A stretch of DNA of 64,000 bases, taken from sequence record MF327008, one strand, 5' to 3'. The DNA is from Shigella phage Sf24. Position numbers and translations under genes: made by a program. Below are positions 126-52,278 of this stretch, in pieces; the stretch's first letter is position 1, and each line of letters begins with the position of its first letter. The notes beneath the pieces are model-generated. The model was given only the letters and a program-made list of their open reading frames with translations. It made no database searches and was not told the origin of the DNA.

Positions 126-160
126 TAATTATACCACATCCTTGTGGTAAAGTAAACTAC
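126..160 (-). promoter_or_regulatory. T4-type early promoter
   Basis: minus strand reads GTTTAC ...17 nt... TGGTATAAT; inverted repeat CCACA/TGTGG between the boxes. Confidence 0.6.
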
Positions 161-43142: not shown

Positions 43143-43463
43143 TTATAGCGTAATCCATTCTCGTACTGTCTGAGTTACTACACGTTCACGGGGCTCGACT
43201 AGTTCAACAGTCGGAACTGCATAATACCAGTCAGAATGATAAGAACCTGAGCGAGTTTCATTTACGGAAACATGTACATTGTGTTTTGGACTAAAATAAA
43301 CACACTGACGATATTGGCATTTACCATCTTGCACCCAGTCTTCTATTTCGATAGGTTTAAGATAATCCGAAAAATCGAAATCATAATTTTCTGAAAATGC
43401 ATCATGGTCTTCGATGATTTCACTCAGAACTGCATCAACATCTAATTTATTTTCAATATTCAT
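43143..43463 (-). CDS. hypothetical protein
   Basis: 106-aa ORF. Confidence 0.5.
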   Translation of the reverse strand: MNIENKLDVDAVLSEIIEDHDAFSENYDFDFSDYLKPIEIEDWVQDGKCQYRQCVYFSPKHNVHVSVNETRSGSYHSDWYYAVPTVELVEPRERVVTQTVREWITL

Positions 43464-44123: not shown

Positions 44124-44366
44124 TTATTCCTTAATTCCTAGTACTTGTTTAAAAGTCTCGTCGTAATCAAGACTTTGACCCGTTTGTTCTTTATGTTTGT
44201 ATATAATATCACTTACTTCTGATAGCATATTTTTATATGAACGAGTTAAAGCAGATTTAAGCACGCTGTATCTATCAGGAAATTTACCATGTTCATTATA
44301 ATAAGCTATTGCTAATTCACGGACTGCCTTTTCAGCAGCCTCCATATATTCTTTACGCTTGGTCAT
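44124..44366 (-). CDS. hypothetical protein (nrdC.1-position)
   Basis: 80-aa ORF. Confidence 0.5.
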
Positions 44367-44368
44367 TT

Positions 44369-44758
44369 TTAATCCAAAATATTATTAGGCATTGGTTGAA
44401 CACTCACAAGTTCTTTAAAGAACTCAGTAGAGTCAGGCAATTTAACCATTTCCGGAGCATGCTTACTGAATTTATGTTTACATTGACGGCATTTATATTC
44501 AAGCTCTGGTTTACGCCAGTTAATCAATTGAACTTGTTCAGTACCGCATTCAGGGCAATTAGGAACGTTTTTAGAAGCTCTTTCACGTCGTTCAACCATA
44601 GCCATAATAGCATCCCATGCTGGAGGTTTAAAATCTAAATCGTCGCAGCCGTGAATCTTTCCACGCATTTCCATATCATCTTCCTCACCAGCCATAATAA
44701 TTTTAATTAGACTGGAATTACTTGAAGCTGCAATGTCTTCTAATAGACGCTTTTTCAT
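44369..44758 (-). CDS. zinc-ribbon protein
   Basis: CPECG...CRQC motifs. Confidence 0.5.
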
Positions 44759-45684
44759 TTCAATACCTCAATAGCATTGCGTAAACCATTTGCTTTTGCA
44801 TTAAGAGCTTTTAACAATTTGGTGTGTTCTGCAATTTGGGCTTCAACTTCAATCAAACGGGCATTGAGATATTCACGTTCTTCACTCAGATTATCAACCT
44901 TTTCTACTTTAGGCTCTTTTACAACTGTCTTATATGTATTAGGGTTCTTCAGTTTAATTAGAATGCGTGAACTGTATAACATTGAACCATTATCTTCGGT
45001 TTCGTCATACATTTCCACTACGTCCATAATTTTTAACATCATGCGGAGTTTATAAGACAACGAACGAATAGTTTTGTTGTGCTTATTAATTTCTTTAGCT
45101 GTCATGGTGCCAAGATTACGTGAGTAATAATAAGGAACCTGGATATTAATTAATACTGATGAACCACCTGGCTTGTGTGTTACTTCATCAGCAATAACCC
45201 AGTCCTTAACATGAACTGTATTTGTACGGTCATCGCCCGCGGTAAATAGTTTGCGAGCATGCTTAAAAAGCATATTCACTTGGTCATTGAATTGACAAGC
45301 AAATTTATCAGCAAATTTAGTTTCAGGAATGGTAGATAACCAATCAGCCAAATGGGTCTTTTTAACATCGTTAACAATAGTAAATTCAACCAAATCAGTT
45401 ATAGATGTCGCAGATTTAATGAAGCTCGGCTTCATAAAGTTTTTAATGTTATCACGAGCTACAGTAGAAGATAACATACGAGAACGTTTAAACCATTCAA
45501 GCAAATTGCCTAACGAATGAGAATAAGCGTTTTGAGTATCTTTACAGATATGATTTTCCTGACCAACATATTGAAGGAAATCACGAAGAATATTATTGAT
45601 TACTGCTCTGTGTCCTATCTGATAATTACGATGTTTAGTAATAAGACTGTCAAAATAATCAATATAATGTTTACGAGTTTTCAT
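44755..45684 (-). CDS. hypothetical protein, coiled-coil-tailed paralog 1
   Basis: 309 aa; N-terminus MKTRKHYIDYF; C-terminal heptad-like tail. Confidence 0.6.
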   Translation of the reverse strand: MKTRKHYIDYFDSLITKHRNYQIGHRAVINNILRDFLQYVGQENHICKDTQNAYSHSLGNLLEWFKRSRMLSSTVARDNIKNFMKPSFIKSATSITDLVEFTIVNDVKKTHLADWLSTIPETKFADKFACQFNDQVNMLFKHARKLFTAGDDRTNTVHVKDWVIADEVTHKPGGSSVLINIQVPYYYSRNLGTMTAKEINKHNKTIRSLSYKLRMMLKIMDVVEMYDETEDNGSMLYSSRILIKLKNPNTYKTVVKEPKVEKVDNLSEEREYLNARLIEVEAQIAEHTKLLKALNAKANGLRNAIEVLK

Positions 45685-45736
45685 GTTCTTCTCACTTGGT
45701 TAATGATTTATGCTCCGAGCCATCCTTGGCTTTAAA

Positions 45737-46738
45737 TTACTTAATTAACTGTAAAGCTTGTTCAAGACGATCCAAGCGATTGACAGATTCTTCCCAAATC
45801 TTTTTAGCCTGCTCATATTCTTTCTGCGCTTTATTAGAAATTTCTAGAACTTCTTTATAAGCTTTTTCTAATGCAATAACTTCTGGACGAATTTCTATCG
45901 GTTCAGGTGAATCATCAAGACATTCCATTAGTTCCTCAAGAGTAGTTTCTTCTTTAGGAGTATTCACAATTTCCTCACATTTTTGTTGATAAATTTCTTT
46001 ATCAGTAGGTGAATAAGCACATTTCACTTCACGAAGACTAATTACAATTTTATATCCTTCCCATCCGCATATATTCTTAAAAGGATATGTATGAATATTT
46101 TCTACTGTTTCCATACAAAGTAATGCAGTCTCTAACTGACGAGTTATAGTGCTAGCAATTGAGAAAAATTTATTAATATTCTTTTGGTTAGCGTTTGGTG
46201 TAAAAAATCCATAATTCACAAAAATAGCTACTTTATTTTCATCAAGCTCATATTCTTTTACGATAATCATATCAGAAGCCAAAGGATGAATTTGACGATA
46301 ATCGCCATAACATAATTTAGAAGCTGATTTTAGAATTTGTCCTTTGAAAAGTCTGAAATTACTAATCCAACGACGAGTAAAAATATTCTCAGGGTCTTCT
46401 TTATTATTAAGATGATAAGAATTAACATCACCGAACCAATTATATCCTACTACATCTTTGGTTCGTTTAATTTCTTTCCCAAAATTACCAAGAATATCCC
46501 GATTAACCAAATATGAAAGAAGACGAGACTCTTTAAAGGTTTTCTTGATATTATCTTTATCTACACGGCTAGAAATTTTACGAATTTCATGAATAAATTT
46601 AGTAGAAGAAACAATACTTGCATCAACACTATTGAGCCATTGATTGATAATAGAAATCACACTATTCTGACTAGACATAGGTTTAACTTTATCATCAATA
46701 ACGCTATTGAATGATTTGATATATTCGTTACGAGTCAT
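45737..46738 (-). CDS. hypothetical protein, coiled-coil-tailed paralog 2
   Basis: start MTRNEYIKSF with GAGGAG RBS; C-terminal coiled coil. Confidence 0.6.
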   Translation of the reverse strand: MTRNEYIKSFNSVIDDKVKPMSSQNSVISIINQWLNSVDASIVSSTKFIHEIRKISSRVDKDNIKKTFKESRLLSYLVNRDILGNFGKEIKRTKDVVGYNWFGDVNSYHLNNKEDPENIFTRRWISNFRLFKGQILKSASKLCYGDYRQIHPLASDMIIVKEYELDENKVAIFVNYGFFTPNANQKNINKFFSIASTITRQLETALLCMETVENIHTYPFKNICGWEGYKIVISLREVKCAYSPTDKEIYQQKCEEIVNTPKEETTLEELMECLDDSPEPIEIRPEVIALEKAYKEVLEISNKAQKEYEQAKKIWEESVNRLDRLEQALQLIK

Positions 46739-46765
46739 ATTAATCTCCTCAGTAGAAAGTAAGAA

Positions 46766-46800
46766 CATTATACCACATCCTTGTGGCAAAGTAAACTAGT
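46766..46800 (-). promoter_or_regulatory. T4-type early promoter, copy of the promoter at 126-160
   Basis: TTATACCACATCCTTGTGG(C/T)AAAGTAAACTA shared with window start. Confidence 0.6.
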
Positions 46801-47821
46801 TTAGTGCATTTAGTGCATTGTTCAGTTTAGAACGTTGCTTCGTAAGATTTTTGACTTTTTCTTGAGCTTTTTCTAGCATCTTTTCAGCTTCTAACACTTC
46901 ATTGGTCGCTTTAACGAGTTCATCATCTACTGCCTTGATAGACTTCTCAATCGCATCGGCATGCCATTTTTCAACAGGTTTAAGACTCGGATTTTCAACA
47001 GGAAGAAAATTCACTTTATTGAATTTCCATGCATCTTTATTACCTGAACTATACATCCAAAATTTAGGATCGTTTGATGAGTAATTGGATAAATTTAAAT
47101 TTAAGTTATCTTGCACTTCTTGCTTTTTCTCTTGCGTGACTTCGTCCTTTCTCAAAAAATCGTATTTAAATGAAACGATCATATCAAGTTCATATGTTGT
47201 TGTGTCTAATTTAAATCGTTCGAAATGCTGTGAAATCTTAGACTGAACAGCAGCAACAACATCCATATACTTAAATGCTTCTGTCAACTGCGATTTAAGA
47301 CATTCGCAAATTGAAAGAGAATTTTTTGTATTAGGTTTAAAGCTAATTCGTGCAGTTCTATTATTTTCTTTTAATGGTCTTACTTCCATCTGAAGAGTAT
47401 AACCATCAAATTTCAGGTTCTTTAAGTTAATATCAGAACCTTTTAATCGACTCGCAGTTGATAAAATTTGCTTTAATTGTCTACGGAATAGAGCAATAAA
47501 TCTCCATTCAATACGATAATGATTTGGATTGAAAAATCCAGATGATAAATCGACCTTACTTTGACCAACGCCTTGAACAAATAGAGGATTTTTATAATCA
47601 ATAGTTTTACAGAAATCGGTGAGCTGCTCACGAGCAGTCATTTGTGTAATATACCCCGCTTTACTAAAATGACGTAACCATTCACTGCTATTCATATATT
47701 TAAAGTGAATATCACGATTAACTTTATCAGGGTCTAAATTATTTTGGCACAAAAATGTCATAACATCACGAGTATAGCTGGCATTACGAACCATATCTTC
47801 AATTTGAGAACGAGTTTTCAT
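46796..47821 (-). CDS. hypothetical protein, coiled-coil-tailed paralog 3
   Basis: 341 aa; N-terminus MKTRSQIEDMV. Confidence 0.6.
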   Translation of the reverse strand: MKTRSQIEDMVRNASYTRDVMTFLCQNNLDPDKVNRDIHFKYMNSSEWLRHFSKAGYITQMTAREQLTDFCKTIDYKNPLFVQGVGQSKVDLSSGFFNPNHYRIEWRFIALFRRQLKQILSTASRLKGSDINLKNLKFDGYTLQMEVRPLKENNRTARISFKPNTKNSLSICECLKSQLTEAFKYMDVVAAVQSKISQHFERFKLDTTTYELDMIVSFKYDFLRKDEVTQEKKQEVQDNLNLNLSNYSSNDPKFWMYSSGNKDAWKFNKVNFLPVENPSLKPVEKWHADAIEKSIKAVDDELVKATNEVLEAEKMLEKAQEKVKNLTKQRSKLNNALNALN

Positions 47822-47829
47822 GGTGTTCC

Positions 47830-48738
47830 TTAAGATTTAAGTAAATCAACAATTTTAATTAACTTTTCACGCTCGGATTTAGCTTTACTACTCAGTCCAG
47901 ATAGTCTGAAAATTTCATCATCATATTGTTGAATAGAAATATTCAGCTCTTCAATCTGTTTATTAAAATAATCAATTTGTTCAGAATGTTTTTCGTTACT
48001 ACGAACTGGTACAGGTTTTGTAGGCAATTTAGTTGAACTGGATTCATCCGGGCGATAAATTAAAATACAACTTGAACCAATAGGGCATTTTGCACCAGAT
48101 GAATATTCTAATGTTCCAGCTTCTTTTAAAACTTCAAAAGCTAAACAGAGATGATGCCCCATATTAACATAATCTGTAGAGTGAGCTCTGACGTAATAAT
48201 CATCGCCGCGAATACTAAATTTAAAGCATTTAAGGTCTTCTGTATTATTGGTCTTAAAAATCATTTGTTTATCTAGACCTTTAGCTAATCGAGCGCCTAA
48301 TGCTAATAATCGTCGTTGATTTTCCCACAAATCTGCGATCATTTGGTCAAATGATAATTTCGGCATTAGTCGACCGTAAAGATCATAGCCTTTATTATAA
48401 TTGCGAAGAATTTCACTTGCATTAATACGAGACAATGCTCCAATTTTATTAAGGGCTTTCATAATGCGATTAGATAAACCCATTCCAGACCCGTTTGTTC
48501 GCTGTAAATGTTTTTCTAATCCAAATCCAATATCAACTTTAAACTTATCTAAAATTTCTGCATGAACATCTCTGTCAATAACATTCAAATCCAAAGTTGG
48601 GTTAAATCTATGAAAAAATTTATCTGGCTCTCCACGACGAAGTACAGTCCATTCATTCAATTTTTTATTAACTAAAGATTTAATTACTGCATTGACATTA
48701 TTAATTACTACTGACATATTTTCCTCACTCAATTTCAA
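47830..48738 (-). CDS. hypothetical protein, coiled-coil-tailed paralog 4
   Basis: 302 aa; C-terminal coiled coil. Confidence 0.6.
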   Translation of the reverse strand: MKLSEENMSVVINNVNAVIKSLVNKKLNEWTVLRRGEPDKFFHRFNPTLDLNVIDRDVHAEILDKFKVDIGFGLEKHLQRTNGSGMGLSNRIMKALNKIGALSRINASEILRNYNKGYDLYGRLMPKLSFDQMIADLWENQRRLLALGARLAKGLDKQMIFKTNNTEDLKCFKFSIRGDDYYVRAHSTDYVNMGHHLCLAFEVLKEAGTLEYSSGAKCPIGSSCILIYRPDESSSTKLPTKPVPVRSNEKHSEQIDYFNKQIEELNISIQQYDDEIFRLSGLSSKAKSEREKLIKIVDLLKS

Positions 48739-49187: not shown

Positions 49188-49715
49188 TTATGCGAGTACC
49201 GTCTTTAACCGTTCTTCAAACTTCCGAAGAGTATTCTGGCGTTCAGCTCTTTGCTTTTTATAAGTTTCAATACGCTCTGAAATGAGAGTGTATCGTTCAT
49301 TTACTGATTCTTTCATAAAATCAGGAATTTCACGAGAAGCTTTAATCTCGTCAAATTTATCAATAACAGCTTGCTCTTCAACAATTAAGTTATCATACAT
49401 CAAAATATCTTTCTTGATGAACTCAATATCTTCTTGAGTTACACGAGATAATTTAGATGCTTTATCCTTTTTGTACTGTTCATTAGTATCACGAGACCAG
49501 TGTAATGTACGATTTTTATTCGTATTTTTGTAAATTTCTACAATACCAATCTCATCGATAATAACGATCCAATTCCAACGAGATTTGTAAATTTGTCCTC
49601 CGTCAACCGTGATTTCACCTCCGATTGAGATGTCATTAAAGAACTTGCTTTGTGCTTCAGATTTAAATTTACCATCATTGTAGTTTACCAAGTTGAAAAT
49701 ATCTTTAGCATTCAT
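49188..49715 (-). CDS. hypothetical protein
   Basis: start MNAKDIF with GGAGGA RBS; track extension reads through promoter. Confidence 0.55.
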   Translation of the reverse strand: MNAKDIFNLVNYNDGKFKSEAQSKFFNDISIGGEITVDGGQIYKSRWNWIVIIDEIGIVEIYKNTNKNRTLHWSRDTNEQYKKDKASKLSRVTQEDIEFIKKDILMYDNLIVEEQAVIDKFDEIKASREIPDFMKESVNERYTLISERIETYKKQRAERQNTLRKFEERLKTVLA

Positions 49716-50179: not shown

Positions 50180-51148
50180 TTATTTCAGAAGAGTAACCTC
50201 AGCGATTTCTTCCCAACCGTTTTTGTCGGTCATAATAAAGTCAGCAAGATAAAGAGCAGTACGCAGTGAAACATTGCGTAAACGATTAACATTGACTTTC
50301 ATCCATGATAATGCTTTATAAGTTTCTTCATCAGAAAGACCGCGCTTTTGCATCATGTCAGTTGAAAGAATAACATCTTCAACCCTGACCATAATTTCTT
50401 CATTAGTGTGAACACCCAAATCCAAATAAACTGAGCGGGACACTAATGCTTGTAAGTGTGGGGCAAGTTTAGTACCACGGTCTAATTCGCGGTCAATGTC
50501 AACGTTTGTGATAAAAACAATCGTTCCTTTAAATTCAAACTCACGCTCAATGCCTTTTTCTTCTAAGTAAGAAGATGCAGTGCTCCAGCAGACTTTACGG
50601 GTCTCTCCAGTGTCCAGAGCAGCTTTTAGAAGATTAAGAATGTCCATATCAGAGAAAACATCCACATCATCAATCAAAAGGACAGAATTCTCTTCACGAT
50701 TATTCCAAAGCTGTTCATAAAGACCAATACCAGAGATTTTACCATTAATGCTTTTATACTCAATGTATCCAATATCATTTGCTTTATTTAAAGCTTTATC
50801 TAAAGAATACGTTTTACCAATACCTGCTGCTCCCGAGATAATTAATGAACGAATGTTTCCGTTAATAATACCATTCGTCATCATTCCCATAACATTAAAT
50901 CTTTTATTAATGCGGGTTTTCATATCTTCATACGATTCTTTAACTTCTTCAACTTTTACACCATCATATGAAATGTCTGATTTGTAAACCCAAACACCGC
51001 GACGTTTACCGTCAATTTCAACAAAAACTTTACCATCTCCTTGTGCATCTACCGGAGCATTATCCGGGAACCATTCGCCTAAGAGCTCAAAAGTTCCAGA
51101 GATTTCTTTACCGAAGTAGATACCCTTATTGATAGTTACAGTTTTCAT
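50180..51148 (-). CDS. AAA+/P-loop ATPase
   Basis: Walker A GAAGIGKT, Walker B VLLIDDVD; start MKTVTINKG with GGAGAA RBS. Confidence 0.65.
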   Translation of the reverse strand: MKTVTINKGIYFGKEISGTFELLGEWFPDNAPVDAQGDGKVFVEIDGKRRGVWVYKSDISYDGVKVEEVKESYEDMKTRINKRFNVMGMMTNGIINGNIRSLIISGAAGIGKTYSLDKALNKANDIGYIEYKSINGKISGIGLYEQLWNNREENSVLLIDDVDVFSDMDILNLLKAALDTGETRKVCWSTASSYLEEKGIEREFEFKGTIVFITNVDIDRELDRGTKLAPHLQALVSRSVYLDLGVHTNEEIMVRVEDVILSTDMMQKRGLSDEETYKALSWMKVNVNRLRNVSLRTALYLADFIMTDKNGWEEIAEVTLLK

Positions 51149-51180
51149 TTTATTCTCCAAATCCGTATCAGTTGATAGTT

Positions 51181-51264: not shown

Positions 51265-52278
51265 TCATTTATAATAACTTCGGTGGTTTTCAAGATAGAC
51301 CTTCTCAAGGAAGTCATCCCAAAAACTCATGTCTACTTTTTGCTGCATACCGTTCTTAGAAGCTTCAGTAGATGCTGCTTCTACTTGATCGACCACATCT
51401 TCCAAAAACTCTTGAACCGTTTTAAATGGATGCTTACCCAACTTCACGTCGAGAATAAAGGGAGCATCTTTGAGTGGATAAATCAAGTCGCCAGTTTTGT
51501 AAATTTCCAATAGTTGAAGTCCACCACGACAAGCATGACTCAGAGCTTTCCAATCAATACCTTCATTAGCTTCGGCTTTACGAGCACGTTCACCATATTC
51601 AGCATCTAATTTGTTCAGTGACTGCTTAAGCTCAATAAGAGAAAGCGTTGTCTGATATTTACGACCCAATACAGTGTAGAACGTTTGTGGGCCTGTTTTC
51701 TTATGATTATGGAACACCCATTCACAGAATTCGTTTTCTGGAAGACGATGCTTAATATCTTCAACTTTAGTGCGACGCTGCTTAATAGAACCATCTTCTT
51801 GGTAATCAACCCATTGCTCAGGGATTTGATTAACTACTTTCAATACATCGCGTAATGCAGCCAAACGAGAACCCTTGACACCATATTTAGAAGCTTGCTT
51901 GCGAACATATCCTAAATAGGATTTCATGTTAGTCGTATAAAAACGAGAACGGTTGTCTTGAATAAACTTCCACACATCAGGCAAATCAGATTTAACCACT
52001 AGTTCAGGTGGAGTGTGAAGCATATCCAATGCTACAGTTTCACCATCTGCTGCTAATTTAAAGAAATATTTAAGACTGTATAGTTCATGGTCAATATCAT
52101 CTTTAGTGTTTTTAGATGATGTGTTATTAGTGTTTTTACTCATGTGCTCTTTGACATTTCCGATAAGAATATCACGAGCAGGAGGAACAAAAATTTCTTT
52201 AAAATCTACATCAGATTCTGGGGTAGAAGTTCCATAAAGATGACTACCAAAATAGCTTTTCATTACTGTTTTCATCAT
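51265..52278 (-). CDS. nucleotidyltransferase-fold protein
   Basis: GSHLYGTSTPESDVD matches pol-beta-type GS...DxD signature. Confidence 0.55.
   Translation of the reverse strand: MMKTVMKSYFGSHLYGTSTPESDVDFKEIFVPPARDILIGNVKEHMSKNTNNTSSKNTKDDIDHELYSLKYFFKLAADGETVALDMLHTPPELVVKSDLPDVWKFIQDNRSRFYTTNMKSYLGYVRKQASKYGVKGSRLAALRDVLKVVNQIPEQWVDYQEDGSIKQRRTKVEDIKHRLPENEFCEWVFHNHKKTGPQTFYTVLGRKYQTTLSLIELKQSLNKLDAEYGERARKAEANEGIDWKALSHACRGGLQLLEIYKTGDLIYPLKDAPFILDVKLGKHPFKTVQEFLEDVVDQVEAASTEASKNGMQQKVDMSFWDDFLEKVYLENHRSYYK

Follow-up and report, generated by a model that had tools for sequence, protein, structure and literature searches.

What do four consecutive genes of some 300 amino acids (aa) each do in the accessory region of a T4-like phage? 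The question is raised by a stretch of 64,000 nucleotides (nt) from Shigella phage Sf24 (sequence record MF327008; the whole stretch is called here the window), in which a first-pass annotation had described genes of 309, 334, 341 and 302 aa as tandem divergent paralogs, typical of host-interaction or anti-defence families under arms-race selection. The four genes, indicated here as A, B, C and D, are the counterparts of nrdC.3, nrdC.4, nrdC.5 and nrdC.6 of T4, and we hold with moderate confidence that they represent a family, tandemly expanded in T4-like phages, whose early and dispensable products inhibit host immune sensors. This reading is based on the published activity of T4 nrdC.5 against the host defence protein Dsr1, on the remote paralogy of the four genes and on their location among anti-defence genes. 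The existence of the genes as T4 open reading frames (ORFs) and the role of nrdC.5 are already known; the joining of nrdC.3–nrdC.6 in one superfamily was not encountered in the searchable literature, nor were the stepwise expansion of this superfamily and the tail-terminator-like core of its members.

Identity and setting of the four genes

The window is AT-rich (G+C about 34%) and the flagged stretch has 95–97% DNA identity to several hundred Tequatrovirus (T4-like) genomes; judged from its sequence, the source of the window is a T4-like phage of the genus Tequatrovirus. The array was located as follows.

44755..45684, minus strand: gene A, nrdC.3 ortholog, 309 aa (phrog_1435, E 8e-117), the member closest to nrdC.4
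45737..46738, minus strand: gene B, nrdC.4 ortholog, 333 aa (phrog_1435, E 3e-169)
46796..47821, minus strand: gene C, nrdC.5 ortholog, 341 aa (Pfam DUF7235, PF23882)
47830..48717, minus strand: gene D, nrdC.6 ortholog, 295 aa (phrog_2257, E 2.5e-153), the most divergent member

The match with the T4 reference annotation is gene for gene, and the collinear position together with the identity to the T4 proteins (nrdC.3 61%, nrdC.4 95.5%, nrdC.5 94–95%, nrdC.6 93–97%) shows orthology in all four cases. The array is flanked by nrdC.2 and nrdC.7 and lies downstream of nrdD, gene 49, pin and nrdC in the T4 annotation, and the same layout is found in phage Bas37. NrdC.5 of T4 has the same length and position as gene C, which scores 408.3 bits against PF23882 (cut-off 30), a family to which A, B and D give no match; PF26897 is the Pfam family precomputed on homologs of gene B.

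The four minus-strand ORFs lie where the first-pass annotation had put them, but two of its lengths and part of its N-terminal description had to be changed. Gene B, of 333 aa, is initiated by an ATG that follows a GAGGAG ribosome-binding site, and the 350-aa ORF listed for it is a TTG extension running through a promoter and is not credible. For gene D the ATG at 48717 is the most likely start: a GAGG site is located upstream, the phrog_2257 match begins at this Met, which is residue 8 of the ORF extended to the TTG, and nrdC.6 is annotated from the same ATG in T4 and Bas37; the 302-aa version, which relies on the upstream TTG, was therefore displaced by one of 295 aa. Of the four proteins, A, B and C carry the supposed common N-terminus M(K)TR, whereas D begins with MSVVINN.

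Hundreds of GenBank records name the products of nrdC.3–nrdC.6 "thioredoxin" or "Thioredoxin, phage-associated". This label, of the thioredoxin/glutaredoxin kind, is wrong and has been propagated from the gene name nrdC.x: Pfam and NCBIfam detect no thioredoxin family in the four proteins, and the models of C and D have a different fold. No enzyme or defence-system domain reaches threshold in any of them in Pfam, NCBIfam or PADLOC. Residues 30–86 of gene A show a sub-threshold likeness to the SAM-like domain found at the N-terminus of tyrosine recombinases and XerD (PF02899; Pfam E 0.07, NCBIfam E 0.0016, both far under the cut-offs), which may reflect only a generic helical bundle.

Evidence for a single remote family

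The relationship among the four genes is uneven. A and B are clearly paralogs: they align by BLASTP with 25% identity over 231 aa (E 4e-8), both belong to phrog_1435, the hidden Markov model (HMM) of the B family scores gene A at E 1e-20, and hhalign gives the pair a probability of 98.3%. No other pair among the four proteins is significant by BLASTP, and PHROGs and Pfam split the array into three families (phrog_1435/PF26897, phrog_2351/PF23882 and phrog_2257/PF26899). At the level of profiles, B and C are matched by hhalign at 88.2% (E 3e-6), collinearly across 248 columns and with a reversed-sequence control of 0.1%. The D family does not give a significant match with any single A, B or C family (1–11%), and the link was obtained once two intermediates, a Marfavirus protein (P0237) and one from a Klebsiella phage relative (P0240), had been added to a merged A/B/C profile, which then matched D at 95.2% (E 2.7e-8) over 132 columns. 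Reversed-sequence controls of these comparisons range from 0.1 to 0.8%, with 0.1% for D versus the merged profile; the profile alignments by which the first-pass annotation proposed to check its paralogs find similarity beyond chance, and its description of tandem divergent paralogs is borne out.

Two homologs bridge the separate families. The Marfavirus protein scores against both the B and the C HMMs, and gp085 of IME523, a single-copy homolog from an Enterobacter phage (Kanagawavirus), is matched by the merged A/B/C profile at 97% (E 1e-10) and by the D profile at 92.9% (E 4e-7). An exhaustive HMMER search with the merged profile over 1.84 billion representative proteins returned 18 matches, all from this phage family, the two intermediates being the distant members. 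In a superfamily alignment of 15 sequences the recurrent elements are an N-terminal TR, a helix with SR(L/M)LS..(V/A)(A/N)RD.L..FG, two helices with F....F......IL..A.RL..G.D.R and L..AL..M(D/E)(T/V)V, a P...PVE motif (PxxxPVE) opening the tail and a terminal L..A(L/I)..LK (LxxAhxxLK).

By tblastn, homologs of A, B, C and D were found in 652, 552, 580 and 740 phage records respectively, nearly all of them enterobacterial T4-like phages; the family is confined to T4-like phages. The survey of copy number across T4-like genera, also suggested in the first-pass annotation, found the gene single in Marfavirus, Kanagawavirus and Jiaodavirus; Mosigvirus, Dhakavirus and Gaprivervirus carry three copies and Tequatrovirus carries four. 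The family is always placed just after an nrdC.2-like gene. The four remote paralogs are best explained by tandem duplication of a single gene that is restricted to T4-like phages and whose ancestral form stood directly after nrdC.2. Within the window the family profiles match no further ORF. In particular, nrdC.8, whose C-terminus looks similar, was rejected as a short member (tail HMM E 3.7, full profiles without match), and the proteins of about 257 aa adjoining the single-copy members in Marfa, IME523 and JD18 are unrelated.

Structural models were obtained with AlphaFold2 for C from the merged alignment (mean predicted local distance difference test score, pLDDT, 69.6) and for D from its own family alignment (pLDDT 77.9). 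The two models agree in the order of their elements. A helical N-domain is followed by a pair of helices, a beta hairpin, one further helix and another beta hairpin, then by a low-confidence linker and a C-terminal part, which is modelled as one 59-residue helix in C and as two helices in D. Both match the same BFVD targets (E5E4A2, A0A2S1GM98 and A0A1V0DXL6), uncharacterised proteins of about 300–370 aa from the T4-like phages Acinetobacter Acj61, Erwinia Cronus and Yersinia fHe-Yen9-01, which argues for one fold family spanning T4-like phages. Taking profiles, bridging homologs and models together, all four proteins belong to one superfamily, related remotely and unevenly but beyond chance, with a predicted common build of helical N-domain, alpha/beta core, disordered linker and conserved amphipathic C-terminal helix. 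In gene C the last three parts were assigned as follows.

47150..47512, minus strand: core of C (aa 104–224), two helices, hairpin, helix, hairpin, predicted as tail-terminator-like, with motifs ILxxAxRLxxxD and LxxAFxYMDVV
46979–47149, minus strand: predicted disordered linker of C (aa 225–281), AlphaFold2 pLDDT 25–38
46799..46978, minus strand: predicted C-terminal 59-residue helix of C (aa 282–341; AlphaFold2 helix 282–340), heptad-like

All four proteins are closed by a helix of 40–60 residues after a low-complexity linker. The heptad-like character that had been ascribed to all the tails is found in C (p<0.005) and B (p=0.01), but is marginal in A (p=0.06) and not significant in D, as scored by a crude in-house test against shuffled sequence. 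Tail-only HMMs, with one family left out at a time, gave no cross-family detection, and therefore homology of the tails is not demonstrable from sequence alone; the tail is best regarded as a shared architectural feature that qualifies as a putative coiled coil in two of the four proteins, B and C. It is also the most conserved region within each family (entropy 0.71–0.73 bits in B and D), and among the folded regions the alpha/beta core varies most (1.26–1.34 bits in B and C).

A protein of 173 aa from the representative library (P0235) has its last 53 residues identical to the NrdC.5 tail, and the 120 residues before them have no match in the window, in the fetched loci or in any phage record; it may be a module swap or an assembly chimera and was dropped as evidence.

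The PDB structure comparison covered the C model. Its core aligns with tail-terminator structures over 100–113 residues at about 3 Å; the N-terminal domains of RNA polymerase alpha score similarly over shorter alignments (62–88 residues), and weak Foldseek matches to tail-completion proteins were obtained. The predicted core is thus similar in fold to tail terminator and completion proteins such as lambda gpU, T5 p142, DUF3168 and STM4215 (2gjv), from which the nrdC.3–nrdC.6 family differs in the extra N-terminal helical domains, the linker and the long C-terminal helix. No sequence relationship accompanies this likeness. Profiles of the family give at most 1.1% in hhalign with T4 gp3, gp15, gp19, gp13, gp14 and gp4, and the Pfam and PHROG scans of the four proteins contain no terminator family. 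Sequence searches of the PDB returned nothing meaningful: the best E was 0.44 with gene C and 0.011 with the merged A/B/C profile (to a designed helical repeat protein), and the D-family profile had no match at E ≤ 1. Moreover, tail terminators are late, essential virion parts, whereas nrdC.3–nrdC.6 are early and dispensable: transposon insertions are tolerated at 91–100% of sites in the nrdC.x genes, and tail genes have zero insertion counts. Being early, dispensable and without a sequence relationship, the family has a fold resemblance to terminators and is not a member of the terminator family. Homology to structural proteins, named in the first-pass annotation as a ground for abandoning its proposal, was accordingly not found in sequence.

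Proposed anti-defence role and its alternatives

The function of one member has been determined in T4. A T4 clone carrying deletions fails on strain ECOR17 owing to dsr1, and nrdC.5 supplied in trans restores its plating on MG1655 with dsr1 (Srikant, Guegler and Laub, eLife 2022; PMC9391042); the same authors described nrdC.5 as an early gene. According to a 2026 preprint (bioRxiv 10.64898/2026.01.04.697583), Dsr1 has its sensor in common with Avs7, and it is the major capsid protein of the phage that triggers this sensor. The allele of gene C, with 94–95% identity to T4 NrdC.5, would be expected to have the same anti-Dsr1 activity. A, B and D are remote homologs of T4 NrdC.5 with the same predicted architecture, but fall in other families (phrog_1435/PF26897 and phrog_2257/PF26899).

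The array is surrounded by orthologs of further anti-defence genes, which are 97–99% identical to the T4 proteins (range for the three genes).

43143–43463, minus strand: 49.2 ortholog
44124–44366, minus strand: nrdC.1 ortholog
49188–49715, minus strand: nrdC.8 ortholog

Gp49.2 of T6 has been reported to inhibit OLD, T4 NrdC.1 to inhibit Septu, and Bas37_0203, by position and length the NrdC.8 ortholog, to inhibit Druantia III. The members of this island resemble the array in locus, strand, early expression, dispensability and variability between relatives; they are, however, small proteins (80–175 aa) not homologous to nrdC.3–nrdC.6. In the HIDEN-SEQ transposon study nrdC.3–nrdC.6 and their Bas37 orthologs were non-essential. 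The array thus presents early expression, dispensability and a location among anti-defence genes, evidence that is circumstantial for A, B and D. The anti-defence role proposed in the first-pass annotation is right for at least one of the four genes, nrdC.5, and judging from homology, context and variability it is probably shared by nrdC.3, nrdC.4 and nrdC.6.

Early expression of the array is related to a promoter within it.

46767..46796, minus strand: T4-type early promoter, GTTTACTTTGCCACAAGGATGTGGTATAAT, composed of GTTTAC, 15 nt and TGGTATAAT, in the nrdC.5–nrdC.4 gap

The first-pass annotation had noticed here a copy of the promoter at the window start, and indeed 29 of the 30 positions are identical to 128–157 (minus strand), a copy sitting just after gene 39. 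The promoter scan scored the element at 10/12 with an extended -10, and the pattern search gave 11 matches in the window against 0.06 expected. The promoter drives nrdC.4 and nrdC.3. Its spacer contains the palindrome CCACAAGGATGTGG, which lies outside the general T4 early-promoter consensus. The repeated unit is in fact a 33-bp cassette, TAGTTTACTTT[A/G]CCACAAGGATGTGGTATAAT, present twice 46.6 kb apart (128–160 and 46767–46799, both minus strand) and taking in the stop codon of the upstream gene; such repeats could act as substrates when deletions and amplifications arise, as reported for T4 in evolution experiments.

The array is transcribed early from T4-type early promoters and is dispensable in laboratory hosts. 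In the mechanism that we propose, NrdC.5 neutralises Dsr1, a sirtuin NADase with a sensor domain for the major capsid protein, presumably by binding it stoichiometrically before late proteins appear. The three other paralogs would share the scaffold of NrdC.5; the variable alpha/beta core is a putative recognition surface, the conserved C-terminal helix would serve for self-association or docking, and nrdC.3, nrdC.4 and nrdC.6 would target other defence proteins. A possible functional analogy is offered by DSAD1 of phage SPbeta, which inhibits the sirtuin NADase DSR2 and whose binding to DSR2 has been solved: in both cases a phage protein acts against a sirtuin that senses a virion protein. 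The sensed proteins differ, DSR2 recognising the tail tube and Dsr1 the major capsid protein, and the comparison of DSAD1 with NrdC.5 concerns function.

If the family reading is true, the validated anti-Dsr1 protein becomes a handle on a whole scaffold family whose copy number rose from one to four in the phage lineage that has been studied most, nrdC.3, nrdC.4 and nrdC.6 become three candidate immune inhibitors in T4 itself, and the variable tail-terminator-like core is the suggested part to be mutated or swapped when specificity is sought. It also raises the question of whether virion folds are reused by phages to make early decoys for sensors of structural proteins. Along this line, it can be imagined that the family is an exapted virion-neck module: a domain of tail-terminator fold, copied from among the late structural proteins, would have been joined by fusion to a helical N-domain and to a C-terminal helix capable of self-association, and would now be an early decoy or plug for bacterial pattern-recognition receptors that sense conserved virion folds (of the Dsr1/Avs7 type, or other Avs), with each paralog tuned to a different receptor; this extension is speculative and rather doubtful.

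Several points weigh against the family of immune inhibitors. Gene D joins the other members via profile-profile and fold-level evidence, without direct pairwise similarity; the confidence of the C model is only moderate; A and D have only a weak heptad signal; and both the binding of NrdC.5 to Dsr1 and the oligomerisation of the tail are inferred. In two Bas37 host comparisons the orthologs of the other three genes (bas37_0198, 0199 and 0201), as well as the nrdC.5 ortholog 0200, had no significant fitness effect, and the literature search gave no function for nrdC.3, nrdC.4 and nrdC.6 and no named anti-Dsr1 factor beyond that of PMC9391042. Finally, the ratios of nonsynonymous to synonymous substitution rates (dN/dS) of the array, 0.13–0.31, are well below 1.

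Among the other explanations, the one that survives best, although we regard it as unlikely, is that only nrdC.5 is an anti-defence gene and that its paralogs diverged to host-takeover or housekeeping tasks, for example binding host RNA polymerase or multi-subunit complexes via the core, which resembles the RNA polymerase alpha dimerisation domain. The transcription machinery of the host is a frequent target of modification by T4 early proteins, and the absence of a conditional phenotype for the nrdC.3, nrdC.4 and nrdC.6 orthologs in the two host comparisons is in line with such a role. Against it, the RNA polymerase alpha alignments are shorter than the tail-terminator ones, the array is found inside a run of proven anti-defence genes, its copy number and alleles differ among close relatives, as is typical for host-range genes, and all four genes are dispensable in laboratory hosts.

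It is improbable that the four genes do not form one family, nrdC.3 and nrdC.4 being paralogs and nrdC.5 and nrdC.6 unrelated proteins of similar size, whose likeness would come from sequence composition, from an alpha/beta motif that is widespread and from helical tails that converged. Such a view would account for the BLASTP result, significant for A–B alone, for the three families held apart by PHROGs and Pfam, for the low scores of D against single families and for the failure of tail-only HMMs to detect one another, and the hairpin-helix-hairpin unit is a widespread structural motif. It is contradicted by the collinearity of the profile matches with reversed-sequence controls below 1%, by two independent bridging homologs (P0237 and IME523 gp085), by the agreement of the C and D models in the order of all elements and in their distant BFVD matches, and by the conserved locus position with its stepwise rise in copy number; moreover, a profile that finds only this phage family among 1.84 billion proteins does not carry a generic signal.

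Lastly, superinfection-exclusion functions are found among the accessory, dispensable and variable early genes of T-even phages, but that general knowledge is all that favours a role of the array in exclusion of, or defence against, competing phages or mobile elements in place of inhibition of host immunity, which we consider very improbable, since PADLOC defence models give no meaningful score (best 12–13 bits), nrdC.5 rescues the phage from a host system, and no membrane segments or nuclease or NTPase domains were found in the Pfam and NCBIfam scans.

Alleles and variation at the locus

The family of early immune inhibitors favoured here is variable between close relatives, and the form of this variation bears on the selection that had been assumed for it. 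The pairwise dN/dS values versus T4 are 0.31 for A, 0.19 for B, 0.13 for C and 0.17 for D, 3–10 times higher than those of gene 49, nrdC, 49.2 and nrdC.8 (0.02–0.05). Constraint on the array is relaxed in comparison to its neighbours, but these ratios give no demonstration of positive selection or of the arms race assumed in the first-pass annotation. The divergence of nrdC.3 has a different origin. At least three allele classes of this gene exist (≥93%, about 77% and about 60% identity), and the allele of gene A is a divergent one, 61% identical to T4 and 78% to the Mosigvirus type; versus T4, both nrdC.2 and nrdC.3 have synonymous divergence (dS) of about 0.9–1.0, which indicates replacement by a divergent allele and not rapid point substitution.

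The two genes, nrdC.2 (44369–44758, minus strand) and nrdC.3 (44755–45684, minus strand), make up a mosaic block, 77% and 61% identical to T4 respectively, between flanking genes that are 93–99% identical to T4 with dS of 0.08–0.27. The nrdC.2 product of the window has 129 aa, as in Bas37, in place of the 104 aa of T4, and carries a zinc-ribbon signature that is sub-threshold in Pfam (Zn_ribbon_8, 26.5 bits versus a cut-off of 34.4).

A rearrangement between paralogs was found in a metagenome contig of 167 kb (P0120), in which residues 145–273 of NrdC.5 are fused in frame to residues 129–309 of NrdC.3; nrdC.4 is deleted and the junction falls at a short FN..VN similarity. Inter-paralog rearrangements therefore occur in nature.

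The block that contains the array is closed by a conserved pair of genes, nrdC.10 (50180–51157, minus strand), with weak, sub-threshold signatures of AAA/STAND-like NTPases, and nrdC.11 (51265–52275, minus strand), which encodes an RlaP-family nucleotidyltransferase (PF10127).

The 3' part of nrdC.6 is a further site of variation. In the T4 reference NC_000866 (L001 12067–12894) the gene encodes 275 aa with a frameshifted tail after ...QIEEL, whereas it is intact, with 295–296 aa, in the window, in the T4 record MT984581 and in the T4 annotation table of the HIDEN-SEQ study; unlike the frameshifted reference, gene D retains its C-terminal helices. In phage Sf25 (P0122) nrdC.6 has an internal duplication of 83 aa that begins at the same QIEEL point.

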